Source of the DNA: a virus
Lineage: Duplodnaviria; Caudoviricetes
Length of the DNA: 43,234 bases
Reading direction: 5' to 3' (one strand)
IMG/VR virus record: IMGVR_UViG_3300033475_000061
Location: 1 to 43,234 of that record
Shown here: one piece after another, positions 2,662-41,016 of the stretch
Layout: each line of letters starts with the position of its first letter
Position numbering within the stretch: position 1 is the stretch's first letter
Translations under genes and position numbers: made by a program
Notes under the pieces: model-generated
Seen by the model: the letters and a program-made list of their open reading frames with translations, nothing else
Told to the model about the DNA's origin: nothing
The model's database searches: none

Positions 2662-3884
2662 CGATCGCCTCCGCTGTCGTCGACCAGCGGGGCGAACACC
2701 AGGACCTCAAGCCAGGTGCGCGCGCGGCCGACATGGACGTGGGTGCTGCCGCCGGGTCCGGGGTGCCCGGTCTGCATCCCCCAGCCGTCACCGACGCGCA
2801 CCCAGCGGTCCCCGTCGGCGTCCCGCACCGCCGTCACCTCCGGTCCTGGCTCGGCCGGCAGCGCCCATGTCCGGGGTTGCGGGTCCTCGGCCGGGTCCGT
2901 CGTCAGGACCTGGTAGACGTCCGCGAGCGGCAGCGTGTCGCGCCCGGCGGCCTCGGCCTCGGTGGCGAGGGCGAGCAGCGCGGTCTGCTGGCGACCCAGC
3001 AGCGCGACCTCGGACTGCTCACCCATCGGTGGCCGCCCGGCGGCCACCCACGCCTCGTGGACGGCGTCGAGCTGCTCGGGCAGCGTCGGGGCGCTCGGGG
3101 CGGCCGGCGGCGGGGTGCCGCTACCATCGACGGCGGGCGCCCGGTCGGGCGATGACGCGAACTTCTTGGCGACGTTCTCCTCTGGCCAGCCGGGCGCCCC
3201 CTCAGCCTCCTGCGACGACGCGATGCCCTGCGCCCGTATGGCGGCCCGGGTCGGGCAGTGTCCGATCTCCCGCTGCCCGATGCCTTCCAGTGCGCATCCG
3301 GCGCACGGCGGCCAGCCGCGCGCCAGCGCCTCGGCGGGGTAGGTCCACTCGCTCTCCCAGCCCGGCGGCGGCGAGTGCAGCGCGAGCACCCGATCGATGC
3401 TCGCCCGCGCCACGGCCAGGTCTGCGCGGGCAGCGTCCCGCTCGTCTATCAGCCAGGACAGCAGCACGCCCAGGTCGGGCGTGATGAGCGCGCGGGCGTC
3501 GGAGTCCTCGGCCCGCCACCGGGCGACAGCCTCCATCGTCCGTTCCCACTGGAGGTCGAACAGCGCGCGCAGTTCCGCAACCTCGCGTTCGAGCTGCTCC
3601 CGCTCGGCCACCGCAGCGTCCGCCCGGGCGGTCTCGGCGGCCAACCGCTCCGTCAGGGCGGCAACCTCAGCGCGCAGGGCATCCGTGTCCTGCCACTCCT
3701 GATGCATCGGCACCGTCATGCCCTCGGCTGCGGCGGCCACGTCCCGCAGCGCGCGCGTCACCTTGTCGAATCCCCATCCCCGGACGGTCTGGCCGGTGGT
3801 CTGGGTGTGGGCGCCGTCATGGCCCGCGTCGCGGTCACAGTGCAGTTCCCAGACGGTGTTTACCTCGGGGCAGCGGTCAGGCAT
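2658..3884 (-). CDS. Mosaic hypothetical protein (Cys/His motif, coiled coil)
   Basis: MPDRCPE...HCDRDAGHDGAH, coiled-coil stretch, CAGC...CPT; AAGGAG RBS. Confidence 0.7.
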   Translation of the reverse strand: MPDRCPEVNTVWELHCDRDAGHDGAHTQTTGQTVRGWGFDKVTRALRDVAAAAEGMTVPMHQEWQDTDALRAEVAALTERLAAETARADAAVAEREQLEREVAELRALFDLQWERTMEAVARWRAEDSDARALITPDLGVLLSWLIDERDAARADLAVARASIDRVLALHSPPPGWESEWTYPAEALARGWPPCAGCALEGIGQREIGHCPTRAAIRAQGIASSQEAEGAPGWPEENVAKKFASSPDRAPAVDGSGTPPPAAPSAPTLPEQLDAVHEAWVAAGRPPMGEQSEVALLGRQQTALLALATEAEAAGRDTLPLADVYQVLTTDPAEDPQPRTWALPAEPGPEVTAVRDADGDRWVRVGDGWGMQTGHPGPGGSTHVHVGRARTWLEVLVFAPLVDDSGGDR

Positions 3885-4122
3885 CGGGCGTCTCCTTCGG
3901 GGTGGTTGCGTGCTCGCGGGCGTAGTCGGCTGCCTTACGCAGCCGGGCGTCCCGGCCGGGAAGGTCCACGGCGGTGAGGATGGCGTCGCCCAGGGCCGTG
4001 ACGATGTGTTCGGCCAATGCGATCGCGGACATGCCATCGGCGGCACCCCAGGCGATCGCGAAGGCGCCGAGGCCCGCGTTCAGTGCCCGCTCACGCACGT
4101 CCGGGGGGATGGGGGCGGTCAT
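3877..4122 (-). CDS. Hypothetical protein
   Basis: 81-aa ORF with ATGA overlap, within the operon. Confidence 0.65.
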   Translation of the reverse strand: MTAPIPPDVRERALNAGLGAFAIAWGAADGMSAIALAEHIVTALGDAILTAVDLPGRDARLRKAADYAREHATTPKETPDA

Positions 4123-5024
4123 GCGGCATCAACTCCGGCGGCCGACAGACCCGACCGGCAGCCATAGGGAGAGCAGCCGTCCGGGTCACCGTCCTCCGAC
4201 ATGTCGGCCAGCAACGCGAAGATGTCACCCTGACGCTCGGCCCACTCCGCGCGAGTCACCCGATCAATGGGGGCGACGCTTAGCGGCACCCGGGAGCGAT
4301 GCAAGAAGGCCTCGCCATCGAGCGGTAGGCCATGGGCGCCGCCTTTACGGATCGCCGCGTCGAAGGCGACGGCGTCGTCCCACTCGTCCGGATGGTTATC
4401 ACGCAGGTCCCGCCACTGCCGGTTGCCGTGGAATGGACAGCCGATGCAGGCGCTCTTGGCTACCGAGGTCCAGCCACGCGAGCGCAGCCACCGCTCACAG
4501 TCGATGCGGGACATGCCCAGGTCCAGCAGCGGGTACCGCTTGGTGATGTACGAGACACCATCCTTGTCGGAGACCCGGCCGATCTCGTCGACCGAGAACC
4601 CAATCCACTGCTCGGCTCCGCGGCCCTTCGGCACGCGCTTGAAGTCCGGCGCGGCGGCGCCGAGCAGCTCTCGGACCTTACGGCCGATCGGCGCCAGCTT
4701 GTACTCAGATGTGCACTGCCGACGGCCCATCCCTTCAGAGCCGTCCGGATTGCGCACGAAGTAGGGGATGCTCGCGTATCGGTGCAGCGGGTCGAGCGTG
4801 TCGTCTCGCAAGTTGCCGCTACTGACCCGGTACAGCGGGATGCCGGCCTCAACCAGCACCACCTCAAGACGGTCAAGGTGCTCATACACCCGGCGCGGCT
4901 CCCAGCCGGTATCCGCGAAAATCGCCCCGTCCAGCGGATCAAGGTCGCCAGCAGCCGCCATCAGTGCGAGCGTGGTTGACTGGACCCCTGCCCCCAGGCT
5001 CAGCAGACGCAGATCCGGCCTCAT
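4119..5024 (-). CDS. PAPS reductase-like / adenine nucleotide alpha-hydrolase family protein
   Basis: PP-loop SLGAGVQS, FADTGWE, RQCTSEYK, YPLLD, KSACIGCPFH, C-terminal GCSPYGC. Confidence 0.85.
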   Translation of the reverse strand: MRPDLRLLSLGAGVQSTTLALMAAAGDLDPLDGAIFADTGWEPRRVYEHLDRLEVVLVEAGIPLYRVSSGNLRDDTLDPLHRYASIPYFVRNPDGSEGMGRRQCTSEYKLAPIGRKVRELLGAAAPDFKRVPKGRGAEQWIGFSVDEIGRVSDKDGVSYITKRYPLLDLGMSRIDCERWLRSRGWTSVAKSACIGCPFHGNRQWRDLRDNHPDEWDDAVAFDAAIRKGGAHGLPLDGEAFLHRSRVPLSVAPIDRVTRAEWAERQGDIFALLADMSEDGDPDGCSPYGCRSGLSAAGVDAA

Positions 5025-5248
5025 ACGGCACCGTCCCGGGCCAGGATCGCGGCGTGCGCCTGGTAGTCCACGTCCTGCGGCGCCGGCCGCGTACTGCCCT
5101 CCGGGTACGCCTCGGCGACCCACTCCGGCGGAGCCGGCCGGCGGTCATGCGCGAGCAGGTCGCCGCAATGCTCGCAGACCCACAGACGCGGGTCCCGGCC
5201 GAGTAGCCGGGTCATGCAACAGTGCCGGCAGGGTATGCGCTCGGTCAT
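5021..5248 (-). CDS. Small zinc-ribbon protein
   Basis: CRHC...CEHCG; ATGA overlaps. Confidence 0.6.
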   Translation of the reverse strand: MTERIPCRHCCMTRLLGRDPRLWVCEHCGDLLAHDRRPAPPEWVAEAYPEGSTRPAPQDVDYQAHAAILARDGAV

Positions 5249-7363: not shown

Positions 7364-7749
7364 CACGCCACCTCGGAGATGATCAGATGCACGGCGCCCG
7401 CCGGCCCGTACGGCAGTCGCTTGACCGGCTCGCCGGAGCGGATCTCGGTGCCCACGAGGTACTCCCGCGAGTCGTCGGCGAGCAGGCCGTAGTCCACGAG
7501 CCCATCGACGATGGCCTTGACGGTCGGGAAGTAGTTGTGGTCGTCGCGCCGTCTGCGGTCCGGGAACCGCAACTCGGCGACGATGCGGGCCCGGCCGAGC
7601 ATGGGCAGCTGGGCCGAGCGGGCGTGCACGGTGGCGGCCTCGCGCCACAGCCGCACCACCGGAGCCAGCCGTCGCCGGTCGCGGCGGCCGTTGGCGTTGA
7701 GCCACGGCGCCGGTGCCGGGATGTCCAGCGTCCAGACCCGCGCGCTCAC
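7363..7749 (-). CDS. rusA: RusA-like Holliday junction resolvase
   Basis: RRRRDDHN..PTVKAIVDGLVDYGLLADDS catalytic pattern. Confidence 0.8.
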   Translation of the reverse strand: MSARVWTLDIPAPAPWLNANGRRDRRRLAPVVRLWREAATVHARSAQLPMLGRARIVAELRFPDRRRRDDHNYFPTVKAIVDGLVDYGLLADDSREYLVGTEIRSGEPVKRLPYGPAGAVHLIISEVA

Positions 7750-8003
7750 AGCGCCGCCCGCCGCTCCAGCGCGTACAGCTCACTGAAGCGCTCCGGATAC
7801 TCGGCGGCCAGGCGGCGCAGGGCGCGACCGTACGCGGCCTTCATCCGCAGGTTGCGTTCTCGGGTCTGCGGATCGGCGGATCGGCTCACTTCCAAGTTCT
7901 TGATGCGGTGGGCTTCGAGACAGTCCGGACACGCCTGCTCGCCCCGCCGCCAGTGCCGCTGGTAGCCCGCCCACGTGCCGACCTTCTCCCCACAGGCGGT
8001 CAC
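7746..8003 (-). CDS. Small Cys/His zinc-binding protein
   Basis: GTWAGYQRHWRRGEQACPDCLEAH motif common in actinophages. Confidence 0.7.
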   Translation of the reverse strand: MTACGEKVGTWAGYQRHWRRGEQACPDCLEAHRIKNLEVSRSADPQTRERNLRMKAAYGRALRRLAAEYPERFSELYALERRAAL

Positions 8004-8263
8004 GATCGTGCCCTCGGGCTGGTGCGCCACGACGCGGCCTCGGGGCAGGAGGCGAAATGGCTCGTGTGTAGGTTGCGGCGCCCGAACTGCTGGGCGACGC
8101 CGAGCACCCGCGCCAGCGGCCTAGTCCCGCCGGCGGCCTCGACGCTGATGGTCCCGCCGGCGACCGGCTCGGCGTCGACGGGCATCGCGCGGGCGCGGGT
8201 CGTCACGCACCAGATGACCGGCGCCCCACAGGAGCGGCACGGCTCGGTCGGCCAGGCGGTCAC
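8000..8263 (-). CDS. Zinc-finger protein
   Basis: CRSCGAPVIW...MPVDAEP...HFASCP. Confidence 0.8.
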   Translation of the reverse strand: MTAWPTEPCRSCGAPVIWCVTTRARAMPVDAEPVAGGTISVEAAGGTRPLARVLGVAQQFGRRNLHTSHFASCPEAASWRTSPRARS

Positions 8264-20101: not shown

Positions 20102-20959
20102 TCAGAGTCCCTTCGTGGCAAGCCAGCCGCGCAGCGCGGTGGCCATCCGGTGGTTGTCGCCGACGTGGTGCTCGGCCACCCACGGCCGGGCGACGGCGGC
20201 GAGCGCGGCATCCGGGTCGGCGGGCGCCGGCGGTACCGGCGCGGGGGTCGGCTGCGGCGCCGGCTGGGTCAGCGGCGTGAAGATCGTCACGTCGCCCTGG
20301 TCGGCGAGCAGCGCGCCGAAGTCGGCGAACGTCAGGTAGGCGCGGCCCTGGATACCCCAGCCCGCGCCCCACGAGTTGGTGAGCCAGACCCGCCCGGCGT
20401 CAGCGTCGACCTCGTCGACCACGAACTCGTGGCCGCCGACGACCGGGCCGGTGATGCGCAGCCGGCCGTCAGGGTCCGGGTCGAACATGTCCTGATGCCA
20501 GGCCACGCCGACGATGACCGGGGTCTGGCCCAGCGCCTTGAGCGCGCCGCCGAGCGAGAACGTGTGCTGGTACCCGGAGATCTCGCCGGCCGCCTTAAGC
20601 ATCTTGGCGATCGTCAGGCCGTCGGAGCCGGTGTCGTCCGGCGGGTACTGGCCGGGGTAGTCGTCGGCGCTGGTGGCGTCGGAGTAGAGCTGGACGGCGC
20701 CGGCCTCGGTCAGCGGGTACCGCGACACCGGCGTGTACGTCTCGTAGAACGGCTCGGTGCCCAGGCAGCCGATGCCGGCGTTGCCGGTGCAGGAGCCGAG
20801 CTGCCCCTGGTCCAGCACCGGGATGCCCCGGGTGTGCTTGGCGTTGACGATGCTCAGGCCGGCGGTCGGGAAGCCGTACCGCCTCGACTGGCTGTCGTGG
20901 CGGATGTGCCGGGCCAGGCGCGGGTCGGTGCTCGGGATGCGCTCGTAGTGGACGGTCAA
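20102..20959 (-). CDS. Papain-like (C1) cysteine peptidase
   Basis: DQGQLGSCTGNA, GGHE, NSWGAGWG catalytic motifs; Pro-rich linker. Confidence 0.85.
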   Translation of the reverse strand: MTVHYERIPSTDPRLARHIRHDSQSRRYGFPTAGLSIVNAKHTRGIPVLDQGQLGSCTGNAGIGCLGTEPFYETYTPVSRYPLTEAGAVQLYSDATSADDYPGQYPPDDTGSDGLTIAKMLKAAGEISGYQHTFSLGGALKALGQTPVIVGVAWHQDMFDPDPDGRLRITGPVVGGHEFVVDEVDADAGRVWLTNSWGAGWGIQGRAYLTFADFGALLADQGDVTIFTPLTQPAPQPTPAPVPPAPADPDAALAAVARPWVAEHHVGDNHRMATALRGWLATKGL

Positions 20960-33981: not shown

Positions 33982-35553
33982 TCACAGCCGCGTCCAGTGC
34001 CACGTCGGGGCGGCCGAGTAGGTGAGGGTGATCTTCCGTCCGGTCGGCACCATCACCAGACCCGAAGTGACACCCAGCGTCTGGCCGTCCACCGCGATCG
34101 CGGTCACCGTGCCGCCGCTGACATGCACGGCGCAGTCACGCCAGAACGGGTTGCGCAGCGCGGTACCTGACGAGGGGACGGCCGGTGGGGTTGTGGTGCC
34201 GGAGGTGCCGTCGATGTACTCCACGCGCACGTTGGTGGGGTCCGACACGGAGATCGTGTTGATGATCCCGCCGAGGCCGACGTAGCCGCTGGCGAGCCCG
34301 TTGGTGTCGGCGATGTGCGCGCCCCCGAAGGTGCCCTCGACGGAGAGCGCGGCGACGACGGCCTTGCCGCCCTGCACGAACTGGATGCCGTTGTTGCACA
34401 CCTCGGCCGAGGCGTTGCCGATCCAGGCCACATGCTGGCTGCCCGAGCTGTTCTCGAACGAGCCGATAATCGTGAACGCGGTGAAGCAGTAGATCGCCCG
34501 GATCGCCGGGGCCGACAGATGCTCGGTGAGGTGGAAGCCGTACGTGAAGCCCTGCACCGACACGTCATCGACGTTGTTCAGGTCGTTGTTGCCCGGCCAC
34601 GGTAACGCCACACCGAACGCCCAGCCGCTGCCCTGACCCACCGTGATGGACGTGGGGGGCTGGTCCACGAGCACGGCGCTATGCCGGATCGTGGCCTGCG
34701 CGCAGCCACGCAGGTCGATGCCTGACATGTCGGCGCCGTGCGCCGTGTTCGGCACCTGGATCTCGACGCCCTCAATGATCACGTGAATATTGCTGAAGGT
34801 GGCCGCCGACGAGCCGTAGCCCTGCTGGGGTGTCGGGCCGCCGATGACCGACGCCTCGCCGATCGTGCCCGACGTGTCCGTCGCGGAGATTGTCGAGCGC
34901 AACACCACCCCGGAACGCTGCCGGGTGGTCTGCGTCCAGATCGGCATGGCCGAGGCGTCGACGGCACCCCGGATGCGCAACACCACCTTGTTGGCGGTCA
35001 TGCCGATGACGGGGATCGGGATCTGCGCGTTGCCGTGCGTCAAGCCCTGCTGCACCGGCGCGCCGGCGATGCGGTACTCCACCGGCGGCACTGGGATGTA
35101 CACCTCCGCCGCACCCGAGTGCGCCACCGCATATGCCACCGCATCAGCCACCGCCGCGACGAACGCGGGGGTGTCGTCGGTGACGCCATCACCCACGGCG
35201 CCATACTGCGCCACCACGTTGAAAGACCACGGGCTGCCGCCGGACTCCAACGCGTCGAGACGGTCGCTCACGCGTGGGTAGATCGGCACCACCGGTCCGG
35301 CATTACACGAGGCGTAGAGCACCTTGACGCCGTCGGGGAACTGGAAGAGCGGGATCAGTGTCGTCGCCGGCATCGTCAACAGCGCCCCGGGAATTGGCGC
35401 GCCAGCCGGGTACGTCAGGATGTCCGCCGGGGTGGTACCGGCGGCGTCGGAATACACCGTCAGCGGCAGGCCCGCGGTCGAGCCTAGCGCGTTGTCCGCA
35501 CGGACCTGGAAAGCCAGCCGTGAGCCCTCGTCGGGGCCGACCAGACGTGCCAT
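33982..35553 (-). CDS. Beta-helix fibre/spike protein within the head-neck cluster
   Basis: FNVVAQYGAVGDGVTDDTPAF pectate-lyase-3-type motif; 523 aa. Confidence 0.8.
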   Translation of the reverse strand: MARLVGPDEGSRLAFQVRADNALGSTAGLPLTVYSDAAGTTPADILTYPAGAPIPGALLTMPATTLIPLFQFPDGVKVLYASCNAGPVVPIYPRVSDRLDALESGGSPWSFNVVAQYGAVGDGVTDDTPAFVAAVADAVAYAVAHSGAAEVYIPVPPVEYRIAGAPVQQGLTHGNAQIPIPVIGMTANKVVLRIRGAVDASAMPIWTQTTRQRSGVVLRSTISATDTSGTIGEASVIGGPTPQQGYGSSAATFSNIHVIIEGVEIQVPNTAHGADMSGIDLRGCAQATIRHSAVLVDQPPTSITVGQGSGWAFGVALPWPGNNDLNNVDDVSVQGFTYGFHLTEHLSAPAIRAIYCFTAFTIIGSFENSSGSQHVAWIGNASAEVCNNGIQFVQGGKAVVAALSVEGTFGGAHIADTNGLASGYVGLGGIINTISVSDPTNVRVEYIDGTSGTTTPPAVPSSGTALRNPFWRDCAVHVSGGTVTAIAVDGQTLGVTSGLVMVPTGRKITLTYSAAPTWHWTRL

Positions 35554-36213: not shown

Positions 36214-36528
36214 TCAGTCCTGCGGTACGAGCTTGGCCAGCGCGGCGAGCACGCCGGCACGCGGCGCGTCCCGGTGGTTCTCCGCCTCGAGGGCTGCGGC
36301 CGCGCGGGTGGCGTCTTCGCCGACCCACTCGAGCACCTGGGCGATGGTGCCGTCCGGTACCCCGTCGCCGTCCCCGTCGACAGCCGGACCGTCCGTGACT
36401 TCCTCGACCGGCGCCGCACCGGCAAGCAGGAAGTCGGCGAACTCGCCCGGCGGAATCTGCTCGCCCTCGATCAGGTCGTGCAGGCCGTAGTTGTAGTAGA
36501 CGCGGCACGTCTTGATCACCCGGAGCAT
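36214..36528 (-). CDS. Small head-associated protein
   Basis: TIAQVLEWVGED..RAAAALEAE...R.GV; follows the capsid gene. Confidence 0.7.
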   Translation of the reverse strand: MLRVIKTCRVYYNYGLHDLIEGEQIPPGEFADFLLAGAAPVEEVTDGPAVDGDGDGVPDGTIAQVLEWVGEDATRAAAALEAENHRDAPRAGVLAALAKLVPQD

Positions 36529-37832
36529 CAGGCGTGCTCCACCATGACCGCGCGCTTGTACAGCGCCGCGTCGCCGGTGCCACTGTCGCTGGGCACACCG
36601 AAGTCACCGGTGTAGGCCCAGCTCGTGGAGATGACCTGCTGCAGGCGGTCCGACGGCGGCCGCACGATCAGCGCGACCTGGGTGGTCGGCGCCGCCTCGA
36701 TCATGCGGATCGACGGGACATCCTCCACGCCGGTGCCGGCCAGCAGCGAGCCGATACCTTCGAACGGCGCCGCGACCACCGCGCCGTCGCCGACCACGAT
36801 GGGCCGGAACACGGTGGCACCCGAGTTGCTGGTGACCGTCGGCGTCTCGTTGTTGCGCACCCAGTCGATGCCGGAGAACCGGCCGATGGACAGGTCCCGC
36901 CAGACGGGCGAATCCTGGCGACCCTGGAGGGCCTGCTTGAAGTCCGCGTCCGCGAAGAGCTCGGCCTCGGTGTCCGGCGGGATGTGCGCGGTGTAGTAGC
37001 CGCCGTTGGTCGGCACGTTCATCTTGCGCAGACGCACCACGGCCGCCCGGAACATGGCCAGGGTGGCCACGTCGGCGGTGGTGATGTCGTAGGCGGTGTT
37101 GCGGGCCGCGGTGCGTACCGAGGTCGGCGCGTTCTGCGCCACCACGTAGTCACCGGCGGTGTCCACGCGGGCGGTACCCAGGGTCAGGGTGCCGGGCCCG
37201 GACTGGGCGCTGGTACCGGTGACGGTGTTCGCGACGCCCGTGATGCTGACCGTCAGCGGAGTCGAGCCGGACACCGCGGTCGGCACGCCGTTCACCAGTG
37301 TCCGCGTGAAGCCGCTGACGTCCGCGACCACGATGCTGGTATCGGACGAGCCGCTCGCCGTCGCCCAGGTGCGGCCACCGGCGTACGCCCGGTAGATCTT
37401 GTTGCGGGCGATCTGGTTGAGCGACTGCGCGGCGTTGATGCCCAGGGTCTGCACGTCGGCCAAGAACTTCGACGCCAGGGTCATCGCCGACTGGATCATG
37501 TTGGTGTCGACCGACAGGCCGTACTGGTCCATCGTGACGGACCACTGCTCCACGGTGTACGTGCTCGCGCCGGAGATGTCCGCGCCGCCCAGCGGCGTGG
37601 TCGTCGGGGCGATCAAGCCCTTGCGGGTGAAGGTCTTGGTGTCGCCCAGGGCGCCCTGCCATGGCTCGCTGTCCGCGATGGCCGGGAACAGGAACCCGGG
37701 GATCAGGGCATCCCGGAAGACGCGGTCCAGCATGCCGTTCTGCATGATCGCCTGAATGGCGGCCGGCAGAGTCGACCGCACGTCGTGGCGGTCGAGCCGG
37801 AACCAATCGGCGCGGGTCGTCAGCTTCATCAC
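36528..37832 (-). CDS. Major capsid protein
   Basis: 434 aa downstream of the scaffold; strongly GC3-biased codons; start is GTG 37832 or ATG 37829. Confidence 0.85.
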   Translation of the reverse strand: MMKLTTRADWFRLDRHDVRSTLPAAIQAIMQNGMLDRVFRDALIPGFLFPAIADSEPWQGALGDTKTFTRKGLIAPTTTPLGGADISGASTYTVEQWSVTMDQYGLSVDTNMIQSAMTLASKFLADVQTLGINAAQSLNQIARNKIYRAYAGGRTWATASGSSDTSIVVADVSGFTRTLVNGVPTAVSGSTPLTVSITGVANTVTGTSAQSGPGTLTLGTARVDTAGDYVVAQNAPTSVRTAARNTAYDITTADVATLAMFRAAVVRLRKMNVPTNGGYYTAHIPPDTEAELFADADFKQALQGRQDSPVWRDLSIGRFSGIDWVRNNETPTVTSNSGATVFRPIVVGDGAVVAAPFEGIGSLLAGTGVEDVPSIRMIEAAPTTQVALIVRPPSDRLQQVISTSWAYTGDFGVPSDSGTGDAALYKRAVMVEHA

Positions 37833-38020
37833 TTCTCCGTTGTGATCTCGATGGACACGATGTCCGGGTGTGCGTGGGCGATCTGCTCGAGGCCGAGCAG
37901 AGTCGTTTGGGTGAGCGCCGAAACCGCGGCGCAGACGCGCCCGTCCTCAACCCGACCCTCGTGCCCGTCGACCGCCAGGCTGAAATGCCCGTCAGCGAGG
38001 GTGGCGGCGATCCGGATCAC
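37829..38020 (-). CDS. prp: Prp (YsxB-like) cysteine protease, minimal 63-aa form
   Basis: V.GH(20)...VC(30)AAVSAL catalytic motif and C-terminal GL..IA..HPD.V.I. Confidence 0.8.
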   Translation of the reverse strand: MIRIAATLADGHFSLAVDGHEGRVEDGRVCAAVSALTQTTLLGLEQIAHAHPDIVSIEITTEK

Positions 38021-38643
38021 GAGCGGGGGCGGATGCCGTACTTCGCCATCTCGGCGTTGACGATCGCCTTGTCCGCGGTGCGGAAGTCGGTCGCCTGGCT
38101 GTCGCCGCCGCGGCCCTGCGACGGGTCCGGTGCCGGATTACGCGGGGCCGCCGTGCCGGCCGGCTTGGCCAGGTGCGGCTTGCGCTCGAGCACCTTGCCC
38201 AGCGCCTCGGTGATGGCCTCGGTGTCGACCTCGCCGTCCTTGACGTATTGGGACAGGTCGCCGAGGTTGAGCGCCGCGTCGTCGCGGTCGGCGAAGCCGT
38301 CAGCGAGGGCCTTGACTTCCGCCTTGACGGCGCGGGCCGTCGCGGCCTGCTCCCGTTTCTCGGCAGCCTCGACCCGCTCGGCGAGCTTCTCCGCCTCGCT
38401 CTTCTGGGCATCCTCGATCGCCTTGAGCTTCGCCGCCTGTTCGGCCGCCAGCTTCTCGGCGGCCTTGCGGGCGGCCCGTTCCTCGGCGAGCGCCTTCTTG
38501 CCGGCATCGCCCAAAGGCTCGGCTGGCGGGTCGGCGGGCTTGGGCGGCTCAGCCGGTGGGTCCGCCGGCTTCGGCGGGTCGGCCGGGTCGTCGTGGCGGG
38601 CGAGAGAGAACCACGCCTGCCGCGGGAGATACCTGGTGGTCAT
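38017..38643 (-). CDS. Scaffolding protein
   Basis: DPPKPA repeats, LGDAGKKALAEER coiled coil, KSEAEK, KPHLA, PDPSQG. Confidence 0.9.
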   Translation of the reverse strand: MTTRYLPRQAWFSLARHDDPADPPKPADPPAEPPKPADPPAEPLGDAGKKALAEERAARKAAEKLAAEQAAKLKAIEDAQKSEAEKLAERVEAAEKREQAATARAVKAEVKALADGFADRDDAALNLGDLSQYVKDGEVDTEAITEALGKVLERKPHLAKPAGTAAPRNPAPDPSQGRGGDSQATDFRTADKAIVNAEMAKYGIRPRS

Positions 38644-38681: not shown

Positions 38682-39599
38682 TCAGAGGATGTAGCCGTGC
38701 ACTCGCAGCGCCCGGATCGTCTCGTCGCGAGACCAGCCGAGCCTTTCCGCTTCCGCGTAGATCGACTCAGGCGTGAGTCGGACCGGCCGCCCCCGGCCAC
38801 CGCGGCCGGTCGCTCGCAGTCGCTGCCCGGCGATGGAGACCGAGCGCAGGTCGCGCTTGGCGTTGCTCACCTGCGCCAGGTCGCCGCCATCGGCGATGGC
38901 CTTCGCGTCGGCCTGCGACCAGCCGGCCGCCCGGTGCTGCTCTGGCGTCATCACCTCATACAGCGCCTTCGGCGACTCAGGCTCGATGACCTCGGCCGCC
39001 GGCACCATCACGCAGTCGCACTGGGGGTGACGCAGGAAACCCCGGCTGTAGCGGTACCAGCGGCCAGCCAGAACCACGCAGCGACTGCAGGACGGCGGGG
39101 TTGTCAGCCTGGTGTACCCGGCGACCTTGCGGTCATTGACCTGAGCTACACCGGTGGCCACACGGGCCGCGTCGGAGACCTGGGTGGCGACAATGCGCTC
39201 GAGGTGGCGGCCGCCGATGGTCAGCGCGCTCGCACCGTCCATGCCGCCGGCCGTGAGCGCTCCGACCTCGAAACTCGGGTACCCCAGCAAGCCCTGCAGT
39301 GTCCGGCCGTCGCTGGCCACGCCGGCGAGCGAGCGGGTCGCCACCTGGCCGGCCGGGTCAGCTGTCTCGCCGGCCAGACGCAGCGCGGTGGACACGTACC
39401 CGTCGGCGCCCCGCGCCGCCTCGGCTTGGTGGCTGGTGACCAGGCTCAGTACCAACTGGGCGATCGCCCGCCAGGTCGCGTCGACGTTAGCCGCGTCGAC
39501 CAGGCCCCAATGCCGTCGCACCTGGCGAACCGCGTCGGCGGCCAGCTGCTCCTGGCGCACGCGGTGCAACTGGGCGAGCCGGGTCAGCTCAGGCGCCAA
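38682..39599 (-). CDS. Minor head / MuF-like head morphogenesis protein
   Basis: GYTR..TPPSCSRC..LAG...FLRHPQCDC...P; follows the portal gene. Confidence 0.75.
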   Translation of the reverse strand: MAPELTRLAQLHRVRQEQLAADAVRQVRRHWGLVDAANVDATWRAIAQLVLSLVTSHQAEAARGADGYVSTALRLAGETADPAGQVATRSLAGVASDGRTLQGLLGYPSFEVGALTAGGMDGASALTIGGRHLERIVATQVSDAARVATGVAQVNDRKVAGYTRLTTPPSCSRCVVLAGRWYRYSRGFLRHPQCDCVMVPAAEVIEPESPKALYEVMTPEQHRAAGWSQADAKAIADGGDLAQVSNAKRDLRSVSIAGQRLRATGRGGRGRPVRLTPESIYAEAERLGWSRDETIRALRVHGYIL

Positions 39600-41016
39600 C
39601 ACCAGAAGGCACCGGCGGCTTGGGGGTGGGCGACGCGGTCGGGTCGGCGCCAGCGGCCGCATCGCTCAGTCGCGGCGAGCGCAGTTCCATCAGCTCGGCC
39701 GCGCTCGGCATCTTCAGCGTCGCCGCGTCCTGCTTGTCCATCTCTTCCATCTGCCGGATCTGCGGATCGGTGAAGCGCATCATCTCGCGCGCGTAGCGCA
39801 GCGGCACGATGCCGGCCTGGTAAGCCTTCGTCGCCGCGTCGGTGGCCTGCGCGATGGTCGGCGTCGACGGGTCACGCCAAGCGGTGGCCAGGCGCTGCAA
39901 GCTCTTGTCCCAGATGCCGGTGTAGATGCGCATGGCGATCTGGACCGTGCGTTCCCAGCTGACGTCGAGCATGCCCTGCTTGACCTCGGCACGCAGGTTC
40001 AGCCGGGCCTCGGCGGACTTGATGCCCTCGGCGCTCGCAGGATTGTCCGTGCTGAAACCGAGGTAGTGCGGGGGCAGGCCGTAGAGGCTAGACACCAGCT
40101 GCGCCAAGGCGTCCAGCGTCTTGTGGAAGTTGGACAGGTCGGAACTCTCGAACTGGCCGAGCTTGGCGTCTTCATTCTCGGTCGCCCAGAGTCGGCCCAC
40201 GACGTTCTTCCAGACCGAGATCGGATTGTTCTGCTCATCGACAAAATCCGACTCGCTGATGCCGACCGCCCAGTACTTCGGCAGCGCGTGGAAGTTGGCG
40301 CCAACCATCATATCTGTGGCGATCTTGCAGGCGGCATCCGACAGCGGCAGGATCGGCTTCAGCTCTGAGACGCCCAGTGGGCGCTTGCGGCGGGCCCGGT
40401 TCAGGATCGGTACCACCGGCACCGCGCCCAGATCGTGCGTGTCGCGGTCAATCTCCGACCAGCCGGTGCCGTCTTTCTCGTAGTGAATGGTCGCGGCCGG
40501 CAGGTACAGGGTCGCCCGATCGGCGTTCTGCGCCTGCTCTTCACCCTGTGACGACCACCGACGCAGCGCGGCGGACGTCTGGCGGGTCCGCGGGTCCGTC
40601 GTGGCGATCATGTCCAGCGCCGACTCATCGGTGATGACCGGCGGGTCGCCGTCGGCATCCGGGCTGCCGATCGTGACATAGGACCGGCCCAGCGCCAGAG
40701 CCTCGACATGCGCCCGGGCCGCGCCGGCGTCCATGTCGTTGGCTTCCCAGATCTGCCAGATCTCATCATCGCCGGACACCTGGTCGGGCCGGCGGAAGCC
40801 TTCCAGCTTCAGCCTCTCTACCACCGAGTCCACAGCCAACTGGGGCCAGAACAGCACGACCTGGCGGATCTGCCCCTCAAGCTGCTGGATCAGCTCCGGA
40901 TGCATGTACGAGAGGGGTTGCTCACCCTCGTAGTAGGCGTCCATGAGCCGCAGGTGTTGCAGCTGCCGATCGTGCAGCCCGATGAGGGACATCAGGGTGT
41001 CGTACTCGGACGTCAT
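39589..41016 (-). CDS. Portal protein (SPP1 gp6-like)
   Basis: YYEGEQPL, WP.LAVD...ERL...GF, IW.ANDMD, LPPHYLG..TDNPAS, W.DP. Confidence 0.92.
   Translation of the reverse strand: MTSEYDTLMSLIGLHDRQLQHLRLMDAYYEGEQPLSYMHPELIQQLEGQIRQVVLFWPQLAVDSVVERLKLEGFRRPDQVSGDDEIWQIWEANDMDAGAARAHVEALALGRSYVTIGSPDADGDPPVITDESALDMIATTDPRTRQTSAALRRWSSQGEEQAQNADRATLYLPAATIHYEKDGTGWSEIDRDTHDLGAVPVVPILNRARRKRPLGVSELKPILPLSDAACKIATDMMVGANFHALPKYWAVGISESDFVDEQNNPISVWKNVVGRLWATENEDAKLGQFESSDLSNFHKTLDALAQLVSSLYGLPPHYLGFSTDNPASAEGIKSAEARLNLRAEVKQGMLDVSWERTVQIAMRIYTGIWDKSLQRLATAWRDPSTPTIAQATDAATKAYQAGIVPLRYAREMMRFTDPQIRQMEEMDKQDAATLKMPSAAELMELRSPRLSDAAAGADPTASPTPKPPVPSGVGA

Follow-up and report, generated by a model that had tools for sequence, protein, structure and literature searches.

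The cysteine protease Prp of Staphylococcus aureus is a host enzyme for which processing of both the scaffold and the capsid protein of phage 80alpha is established (PMC5744158). The substrate sites listed for Prp read KFNLQFF/AD, KLNLQHF/AS and KLNLQFF/AS (PMC9405229, Table 1; a slash marks the cut throughout). In Streptococcus phage Cp-1, a phage protease removes the first 48 residues of the capsid protein (PMC12445089). Here we describe a 63-residue relative of Prp encoded between the scaffold and major capsid genes of IMG/VR virus record IMGVR_UViG_3300033475_000061, a 43,234-base record with a guanine–cytosine (GC) content of ~70% that was analysed over its whole length (hereafter the window). 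The locus combines Prp homology, a conserved His20/Cys30 pair and a half-size architecture with a leader shared by scaffold and capsid, and enzyme and leaders co-occur across relatives. Sequence comparison makes it likely that this single-repeat protein self-assembles into a Prp-like oligomer and cuts the WFxLxRH leader off both head proteins.

A half-size relative of Prp

Against the Pfam family PF04327 (Peptidase_Prp), the small protein scored 32.3 bits (cut-off 27; E = 1.2e-7), covering profile positions 1–59 of 90. It fell far under the cut-offs of the NCBIfam PRK14553 equivalogs, with 21 bits where 136 are needed and 19.5 where 171 are needed. The context of the ribosomal enzyme, an rplU-prp-rpmA operon with an extended L27 as substrate, was not found, the small gene lying between scaffold and capsid instead. 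A protein search retrieved 225 homologues, those with named sources coming from Streptomyces, Nonomuraea, Streptosporangium and related genera. The best 120 are all 61–65 residues long, and in these G11, G19, H20, E21, G27 and C30 are invariant. Aligned by sequence, G19, H20, G27 and C30 correspond to Gly21, His22, Gly29 and Cys34 of S. aureus Prp, and the helix serine S34 (Ser38 of S. aureus Prp) is Ser in 117 and Thr in 3. A sequence profile of the small protein matched the Streptococcus mutans structure 2G0I (E = 0.005) and the S. aureus structure 4PEO (E = 0.026), in both cases as two separate pieces.

Coding constraint acts on the gene. Across 69 distinct 62-codon versions, the number of differences per site is 0.16 at the first codon position, 0.14 at the second and 0.37 at the third, and the codons for His and Cys show synonymous variation only. 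A broken or truncated gene was considered and rejected, given the constant length of the best 120 homologues and a C-terminus that is that of Prp repeat 2. By all comparative signs the small protein appears to behave as a Prp. A first, sequence-only reading of this DNA had named the gene as a Prp; the Pfam match and the invariance of His20 and Cys30 bear this out as far as sequence can, and the gene, both leaders and the overlaps at its ends lie exactly where that reading had put them. Because it has neither the one-chain fold nor the Asp31 of the S. aureus enzyme (see below), we file the protein as a clan-CR relative and not as a ribosomal Prp.

One repeat of a two-repeat fold

When compared with a profile built from 120 full-length Prps, the small protein matched twice (E-values refer to a single pairwise comparison): residues 1–54 to columns 1–58 (probability 99.4, E = 2.8e-21) and residues 3–60 to columns 55–108 (probability 96.6, E = 6.3e-10). 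Position-by-position scoring showed that residues 29–40 favour repeat 1 (45.9 versus 7.1 bits), residues 41–46 fit both repeats (17.5 versus 16.7 bits) and residues 47–60 favour repeat 2 (19.1, with −5.7 for repeat 1). On these scores, the chain is therefore best read as the catalytic first half fused, at the repeated LGLE motif, to the last part of helix 2 plus strand 5. Its most unusual feature, as judged from these alignments, is that it corresponds to one beta-beta-alpha-beta repeat of the two-repeat Prp fold, so that the one-chain fold described for Prp (PMC9405229) is not attained. The sequence-only reading had left the small size unexplained.

Because the small protein corresponds to a single repeat, it probably works as a homo-oligomer, and we consider it likely that both leaders are cut in this form. 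A review notes that Gly21 is hydrogen-bonded to Gly65 in S. aureus Prp. The conserved repeat-2 glycine (column 63, present in 115 of the 120 full-length Prps) aligns with the invariant Gly11 of the small protein. Taking Gly11 as the repeat-2 glycine of that bond, we infer that two chains pair via strand 2 and rebuild one Prp protomer, in which Gly19 would meet the partner's Gly11 as Gly21 meets Gly65. A tetramer of two such pairs would then be the equivalent of the Prp dimer and could contain as many as four dyads.

Half-size forms are not confined to the close relatives of the window. An exhaustive profile search returned 788 representatives at E ≤ 0.001, and 38 of the best 150 are at most 83 residues long. 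Most of these short representatives end in the same helix-Pro-strand tail, and full-length proteins mostly match in two stretches. The ESM Atlas holds further half-size clusters of 55, 58 and 64 residues, and BFVD one of 61 residues. Two apparent fusions (P0126 and P0127) from a search for longer lengths were read as frameshifted, run-together gene calls and not as natural fusions; the same search also gave one full-length Prp. A tree of the ~50-residue catalytic cores groups the half-size forms (10 label changes versus a mean of 41 in shuffles) and does not separate a single from a multiple origin.

Eighty viral loci were fetched with the group that keeps Asp31, and these mostly encode full-length enzymes. 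In six of them (L284–L288 and L290; GC ~46% in those measured), the gene for a half-size enzyme immediately precedes the scaffold gene, with leaders such as WLFRLQRF/ND and WTFRMQRF/ND on the scaffold and LHFDLQRF/NE on the capsid. Their loop and leader type point to Bacillota hosts, and by sequence they look like a link between L27-like leaders and the actinophage leader. One further half-size Prp belongs to a phage of 59% GC whose head module is different (L289, 4024–4258 and 6674–7055), where a leader-like VLDAQRF/ND stands near the start of a small downstream gene. We found no paper on half-size or actinophage Prps in the open-licence literature.

A leader shared by scaffold and capsid

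Read from the ATG at 38643, the scaffold begins MTTRYLPRQA-WFSLARH-DD, with the motif and the following Asp at 38590–38613; the capsid, read from the ATG at 37829, begins MKLTTRAD-WFRLDRH-DV, with the same element at 37782–37805. The strict motif W-F-x-[LIVM]-x-R-H occurs exactly twice in the six frames of the window, on these two proteins and on no other window protein, and likewise twice in the head region examined of Streptomyces phage Kromp. An equally good eight-residue match (six identities) arose in 4 of 5000 shuffles of both N-terminal 30-mers. BLASTP between scaffold and capsid found the leader only (E = 0.038; other pieces at least 2.0), as expected if the two proteins are otherwise unrelated, which the sequence-only reading had maintained.

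Among the relatives described below, all 120 capsid leaders have H at P1, 117 have F at P6 and 113 have L at P4. The 108 scaffold leaders have F at P6 in 107 and L at P4 in 104, and their P1 residue is H in 99 and F in 9. The leaders thus present what defines those of 80alpha: a shared motif on two unrelated head proteins, hydrophobic residues at P6 and P4, and an aromatic P1. They depart from 80alpha at P3, where Gln gives way to a variable residue (D, N, A, T, S, G), and at the small P1', which Asp occupies in 78 of the 120 capsids and 86 of the 108 scaffolds. The form W-x-F-[DN]-L-x-R-F/D, for example WLFDLARF/DE, is present in 9 of the 108 scaffolds, and one further scaffold (L141) reads KWTFNLACF/DE. 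The closest chromosomal Prps precede L27 genes with leaders like MFKFDLQLF/AHKK (18 of 19 loci). Aligned with the 80alpha site KFNLQFF/AD and with the L27 leaders, these variants with F at P1 set the register: P6 is F, P4 is L, and P1 is either H or F. In this register the WFxLxRH motif reads as the Prp motif of L27 and 80alpha. The specificity is accordingly less distinct than had been claimed from the sequence of the window, as residue 48 of the Cp-1 capsid record is also His. The claim of cleavage after His on two substrates is supported by comparative evidence.

Loss of the P3 Gln appears to be paired with a change in the enzyme. According to the review, L27 has a Gln at P3 that forms bonds with Gly29 and Asp31. 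Both Asp31 and the P3 Gln are gone in the actinophage group, and half-size enzymes that keep Asp31 adjoin Gln (LQRF) leaders, a pairing that is drawn from two groups only. Two capsids (L142 and L143, ~3190–3310) carry two full tandem motifs, WFRLDRH/DG ... WFDLGRH/DV, which suggests that the tag is a duplicable module.

Co-occurrence of enzyme and leaders

We assembled 124 capsid-anchored loci, 44 from genomes and 80 from 116 viral loci. The small gene lies directly upstream of the capsid gene in 120 of them, all actinobacterial or viral, and Arg-His stands at the expected place of the capsid in every one of these 120. Scaffold DNA is absent from 10 loci; of the other 110, 108 show the motif directly, one has it in a shifted frame (L049) and one has a divergent form (L060). 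Motif and gene thus occur together in related loci, for all 120 capsid leaders and all 110 readable scaffold leaders. In searches anchored on the protease, 70 of 70 capsids from viral contigs carried the motif; among the scaffolds, pattern matching recovered it in 68 of 69, the remaining one reading KWTFNLACF/DE. The corresponding figures for metagenome contigs are 42 of 45 and 31 of 31, the three capsid misses being two P4 variants and one frameshifted contig.

The other four capsid loci (Acidocella, Rhodospirillales), Ralstonia phage Hyacinthe and Komagataeibacter phage phiKX1 encode capsids of the same family at 32–37% identity. These six proteobacterial relatives have no leader and no Prp match in the available flanks, and their initiator Met aligns with Asp16 of the window capsid. 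Within a locus the leaders change together. The locus with the most divergent enzyme (L060) reads LPFIPNPRRH/D on the capsid and LPFIPNPSRH/D on the scaffold, and another (L201) has Phe at P1 in both leaders. The L060 enzyme (2667–2867 and flanks) has a longer loop and no Glu after the His, and a search of viral contigs for relatives of it found only L060 itself. The region upstream of the L201 scaffold (L201:1–850) encodes a domain with a metallopeptidase-like HEFGH motif and also contains a small cysteine-rich gene; VG15 had no match in the L201 DNA available. One full module occurs on a 12-kb contig of a bin titled Woeseiaceae, outside Actinomycetota, and is possibly mis-binned (L033).

The hosts of relatives that were examined offer no Prp of their own. 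In five of five such genomes the only PF04327 match is the prophage copy, and among 401 sampled genomes of the phylum one passes the PF04327 cut-off, which is that same prophage (being a sample, this does not prove absence). L27 begins M-AHKK and lacks an extension in five of five genomes, namely four of those hosts and a metagenome bin titled Kutzneria sp.; this bin holds a stretch identical to the window (L001), which is no proof of host. The view that this Prp is private to the phage agrees with both results. Since the relatives' hosts examined lack Prp, the phage would need its own enzyme.

Proposed mechanism and alternatives

In the mechanism that we favour, the small protein would cut the scaffold after His17 and the capsid after His15; cleavage of both leaders after His has good comparative support and is, in our judgement, likely. 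The hydrophobic pockets occupied by the two leucines of L27 would here receive Phe (P6) and Leu (P4) of the leader, and the P1 His (or Phe) would stack on His20. By analogy with 80alpha, the part that the leader plays as a tag for assembly or folding may outweigh that of its cleavage.

Several observations weigh against this mechanism. We found neither a cleavage assay nor a virion N-terminus for any member. The equivalent of Asp31 is gone from 120 of 120 half-size actinophage proteins through a two-residue loop deletion and is retained in 120 of 120 full-length relatives, and the review reports that D31A abolishes the activity of S. aureus Prp. It also describes a small P1' pocket, and P1' is mostly Asp here; Bacillota phage leaders with Asp or Asn at P1' do exist. 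In 80alpha, mutants with uncleavable capsid and scaffold are viable (PMC5744158). In one contig (L048/L261) the leaders are intact and the protease gene carries a frameshift, possibly an assembly error. The locus sets overlap and are related and partly redundant, with 89 distinct protease sequences in the 120 loci and two loci identical to the window, so the co-occurrence rests on few independent events. Finally, the match to Prp that had been anticipated from profile and structure comparison was obtained with profiles and not with the structure. An AlphaFold2 monomer model (predicted local distance difference test 79.5, predicted template modelling score 0.49) shows one long helix and two strands but leaves the last strand unformed. 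A Foldseek search of it against the PDB gave no match at E ≤ 0.001 and no Prp among the matches listed; a hairpin and a helix are too little for a fold search. Its top viral match in BFVD is a predicted 61-residue 'cysteine protease Prp' (template modelling score 0.74, E = 1.2e-3). The unformed strand would fit an obligate oligomer without showing one.

The missing Asp31, essential in S. aureus Prp, would be explained if the small protein served as a chaperone or assembly adaptor that binds the leader, with little or no cutting. In the same vein, the N-terminal sequence of the 80alpha scaffold is essential and its cleavage dispensable (PMC5744158), and a chaperone role for Prp has been suggested in the cited literature. 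We regard such a binder as unlikely, though the least unlikely of the alternatives: His20, Cys30, Gly19 and Gly27 are invariant although their codons vary synonymously, the leaderless relatives begin exactly at the predicted cut, and the loss of Asp31 looks matched to the substrate, because Asp31 contacts the P3 Gln that these leaders have lost. It is more doubtful still that the small protein cuts with the missing half of the fold supplied by a different partner, such as the scaffold, the capsid or a host protein. Prp strands 3–4 and one helix are indeed missing and the monomer model is incomplete, yet the one chain can be aligned with both Prp repeats and retains, from repeat 2, the C-terminal end of the helix and strand 5, its invariant Gly11 corresponds to the conserved repeat-2 glycine, and half-size forms recur beside different head modules.

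Two further candidates would place the cutting outside the small protein. For the upstream VG15/MuF-like protein, a VG15 match is present in all 101 protease loci whose upstream DNA spans 2 kb or more and absent from the 4 leaderless genome loci, and Kromp gp4 is annotated 'capsid maturation protease'. It is nevertheless a very improbable cutter, because Brevibacterium phage AGM1 encodes a VG15 relative (29% identity, E = 4e-25) and has no leader and no Prp. Moreover, the gene at the same position in phage Bernal13 is annotated as a MuF-like minor capsid protein and the Bernal13 head proteins lack a leader, and the leader motif is Prp's own in register. This neighbour, often annotated 'capsid maturation protease', probably stands outside the processing system. 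Removal of the leaders by a host protease, with the phage gene redundant, has a precedent in host Prp acting on 80alpha (PMC5744158), but the prophage copy is the only PF04327 match in the five host genomes of relatives and in the 401 sampled genomes, and host L27 lacks the extension in five of five; we give this the least credence of all.

Taken furthest, our preferred mechanism of cutting by a self-assembled single-repeat Prp relative would place the small protein in an undescribed, widespread subfamily of homotetramers with four sites, showing the Prp fold to be a tandem repeat. One lineage would have passed from Bacillota phages to actinophages with enzyme and tag rewired together (Asp31 and the P3 Gln lost, Arg-His at P2–P1), giving a 63-residue protease and tag pair with no host substrate. 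For this wider picture we see the balance as tipping only slightly in favour.

Gene layout of the head module

The window, which belongs to a soil-actinomycete-type phage, carries an integrase gene, a siphovirus-type tail, lysis genes and SPP1-like head genes. The head module lies on the minus strand in the order terminase, portal, VG15/MuF-like gene, scaffold, small gene and capsid (Table 1). The small gene overlaps the scaffold stop (GTGA, 38017–38020) and the capsid start (TGATG, at 37829). The match of the capsid to the N4-gp56 family TIGR04387 is weak and below the cut-off.

Table 1 Features of the head module and their coordinates in the window.
Feature	Coordinates	Strand	Remarks
Half-size Prp-like cysteine protease, 63 residues, beta-beta-alpha-beta	37829..38020	-	GTG start
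Putative dyad	His20, 37961-37963; Cys30, 37931-37933	-	Sequence reads DGH20E...RVC30AAVSAL
Head scaffolding protein, 208 residues	38017..38643	-	PHROG 4708, E = 3.7e-19
Scaffold leader, Met1-His17 (MTTRYLPRQAWFSLARH)	38593..38643	-	Predicted cut before Asp18 (38590-38592); leader kept in 110/110 readable scaffolds
Major capsid protein, 433 residues	36528..37829	-	PHROG 1357 major head protein, E = 1e-23
Capsid leader, Met1-His15 (MKLTTRADWFRLDRH)	37785..37829	-	Predicted mature start DVRSTL at 37784
VG15/MuF-like minor head protein	38682..39662	-	PF25310 VG15, E = 3.3e-13; PHROG 1522

Elsewhere in the window, a gene for a 523-residue pectate-lyase-like tail spike (33982–35553, minus strand) lies among the head–tail connector genes and not in the tail module. 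A second peptidase gene (20102–20959, minus strand; PHROG 16701, E = 1.2e-46), unlinked to the head module, lies directly downstream of the endolysin and small membrane-protein genes. The early region contains a gene of the phosphoadenosine phosphosulfate reductase family (4119–5123, minus strand; PHROG 424).

Significance

The Prp used by 80alpha is encoded by an essential host gene, for which deletion is impossible. In the present system the enzyme has a phage gene of its own, the hosts examined lack Prp, and a cultured representative, Kromp, which grows on Streptomyces, exists; whether it is binding or cutting that matters can therefore be tested. If our reading is correct, a single-repeat enzyme of 63 residues would count as a very small site-specific protease and would reveal by what route repeat recombination gave rise to the Prp fold or shrank it; the architecture would come as a surprise to protease specialists. 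The matched changes in enzyme and tag form a natural series for mapping Prp specificity, with relevance to Prp as an antibiotic target and as a tool for tag removal.

Comparison with known systems

S. aureus Prp (MEROPS C108, clan CR; PDB 4PEO and 7KLD) resembles the small protein in its His-Cys dyad, flanking glycines and helix serine, and its 80alpha substrates, again a scaffold and a capsid, share the register of hydrophobic P6 and P4 and aromatic P1. It is, however, encoded by the host, with ~106 residues and two repeats, whereas the phage-encoded protein here has 63 residues and one. The small protein also lacks Asp31 and has a Glu after the catalytic His. Its leaders are similar in length to those of 80alpha (15–17 residues here and 13–14 there) and, in contrast to those of 80alpha and L27, have Arg-His at P2–P1, mostly Asp at P1' and no Gln at P3. 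Unlike S. aureus, the hosts examined here provide no L27 substrate.

Orf13 of Streptococcus phage Cp-1 (clan CR) is likewise a phage-encoded relative of Prp that removes an N-terminal piece of the major capsid protein. It differs in being full length (104 residues), in the 48 residues removed, in the unrelated upstream motif LEGARINH and in belonging to a phi29-like podophage, and the literature passages covered describe no shared scaffold tag for Cp-1.

Comparable in organization are Lactobacillus phage Lj965, Oenococcus phage phiS13, Lactococcus phage PLgT-1 and Acutalibacter phage Fontainebleau, each with its own Prp in the head module (PHROG 4478 'peptidase') and with leaders shared by scaffold and capsid, such as LDLQRF/A, FNLQRF/A and FNLQLF/D. 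Their enzymes are two-repeat proteins of 95–98 residues, their leaders are L27-like (LQxF) and their host phylum has its own Prp. Such modules, in which a phage-borne Prp accompanies a tagged scaffold and capsid, are common in Bacillota phages. In three phages with full-length Prps (L291, L301 and L352; ~7600–8150), a gene several places downstream of the capsid, probably for the major tail protein, also starts with a leader, DLQLF/A; the major tail protein of the window has none.

The system has a cultured member in Streptomyces phage Kromp (MH744420), whose gp6 is annotated 'protease' and is the only cultured match to the small protein among 50,697 phage records. This protein has 62 residues, is 63% identical and lies in the same gene order, next to a capsid (gp7) that is 57% identical to that of the window, and the Kromp leaders read WFQLTRH/D and WFRLDRH/D. 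We found no paper in the open-licence literature on the substrates or the half-size build of gp6. The scheme of a Prp with tagged head proteins is thus already known and common; what differs here is the single-repeat enzyme, the Arg-His/Asp tag and hosts without Prp.

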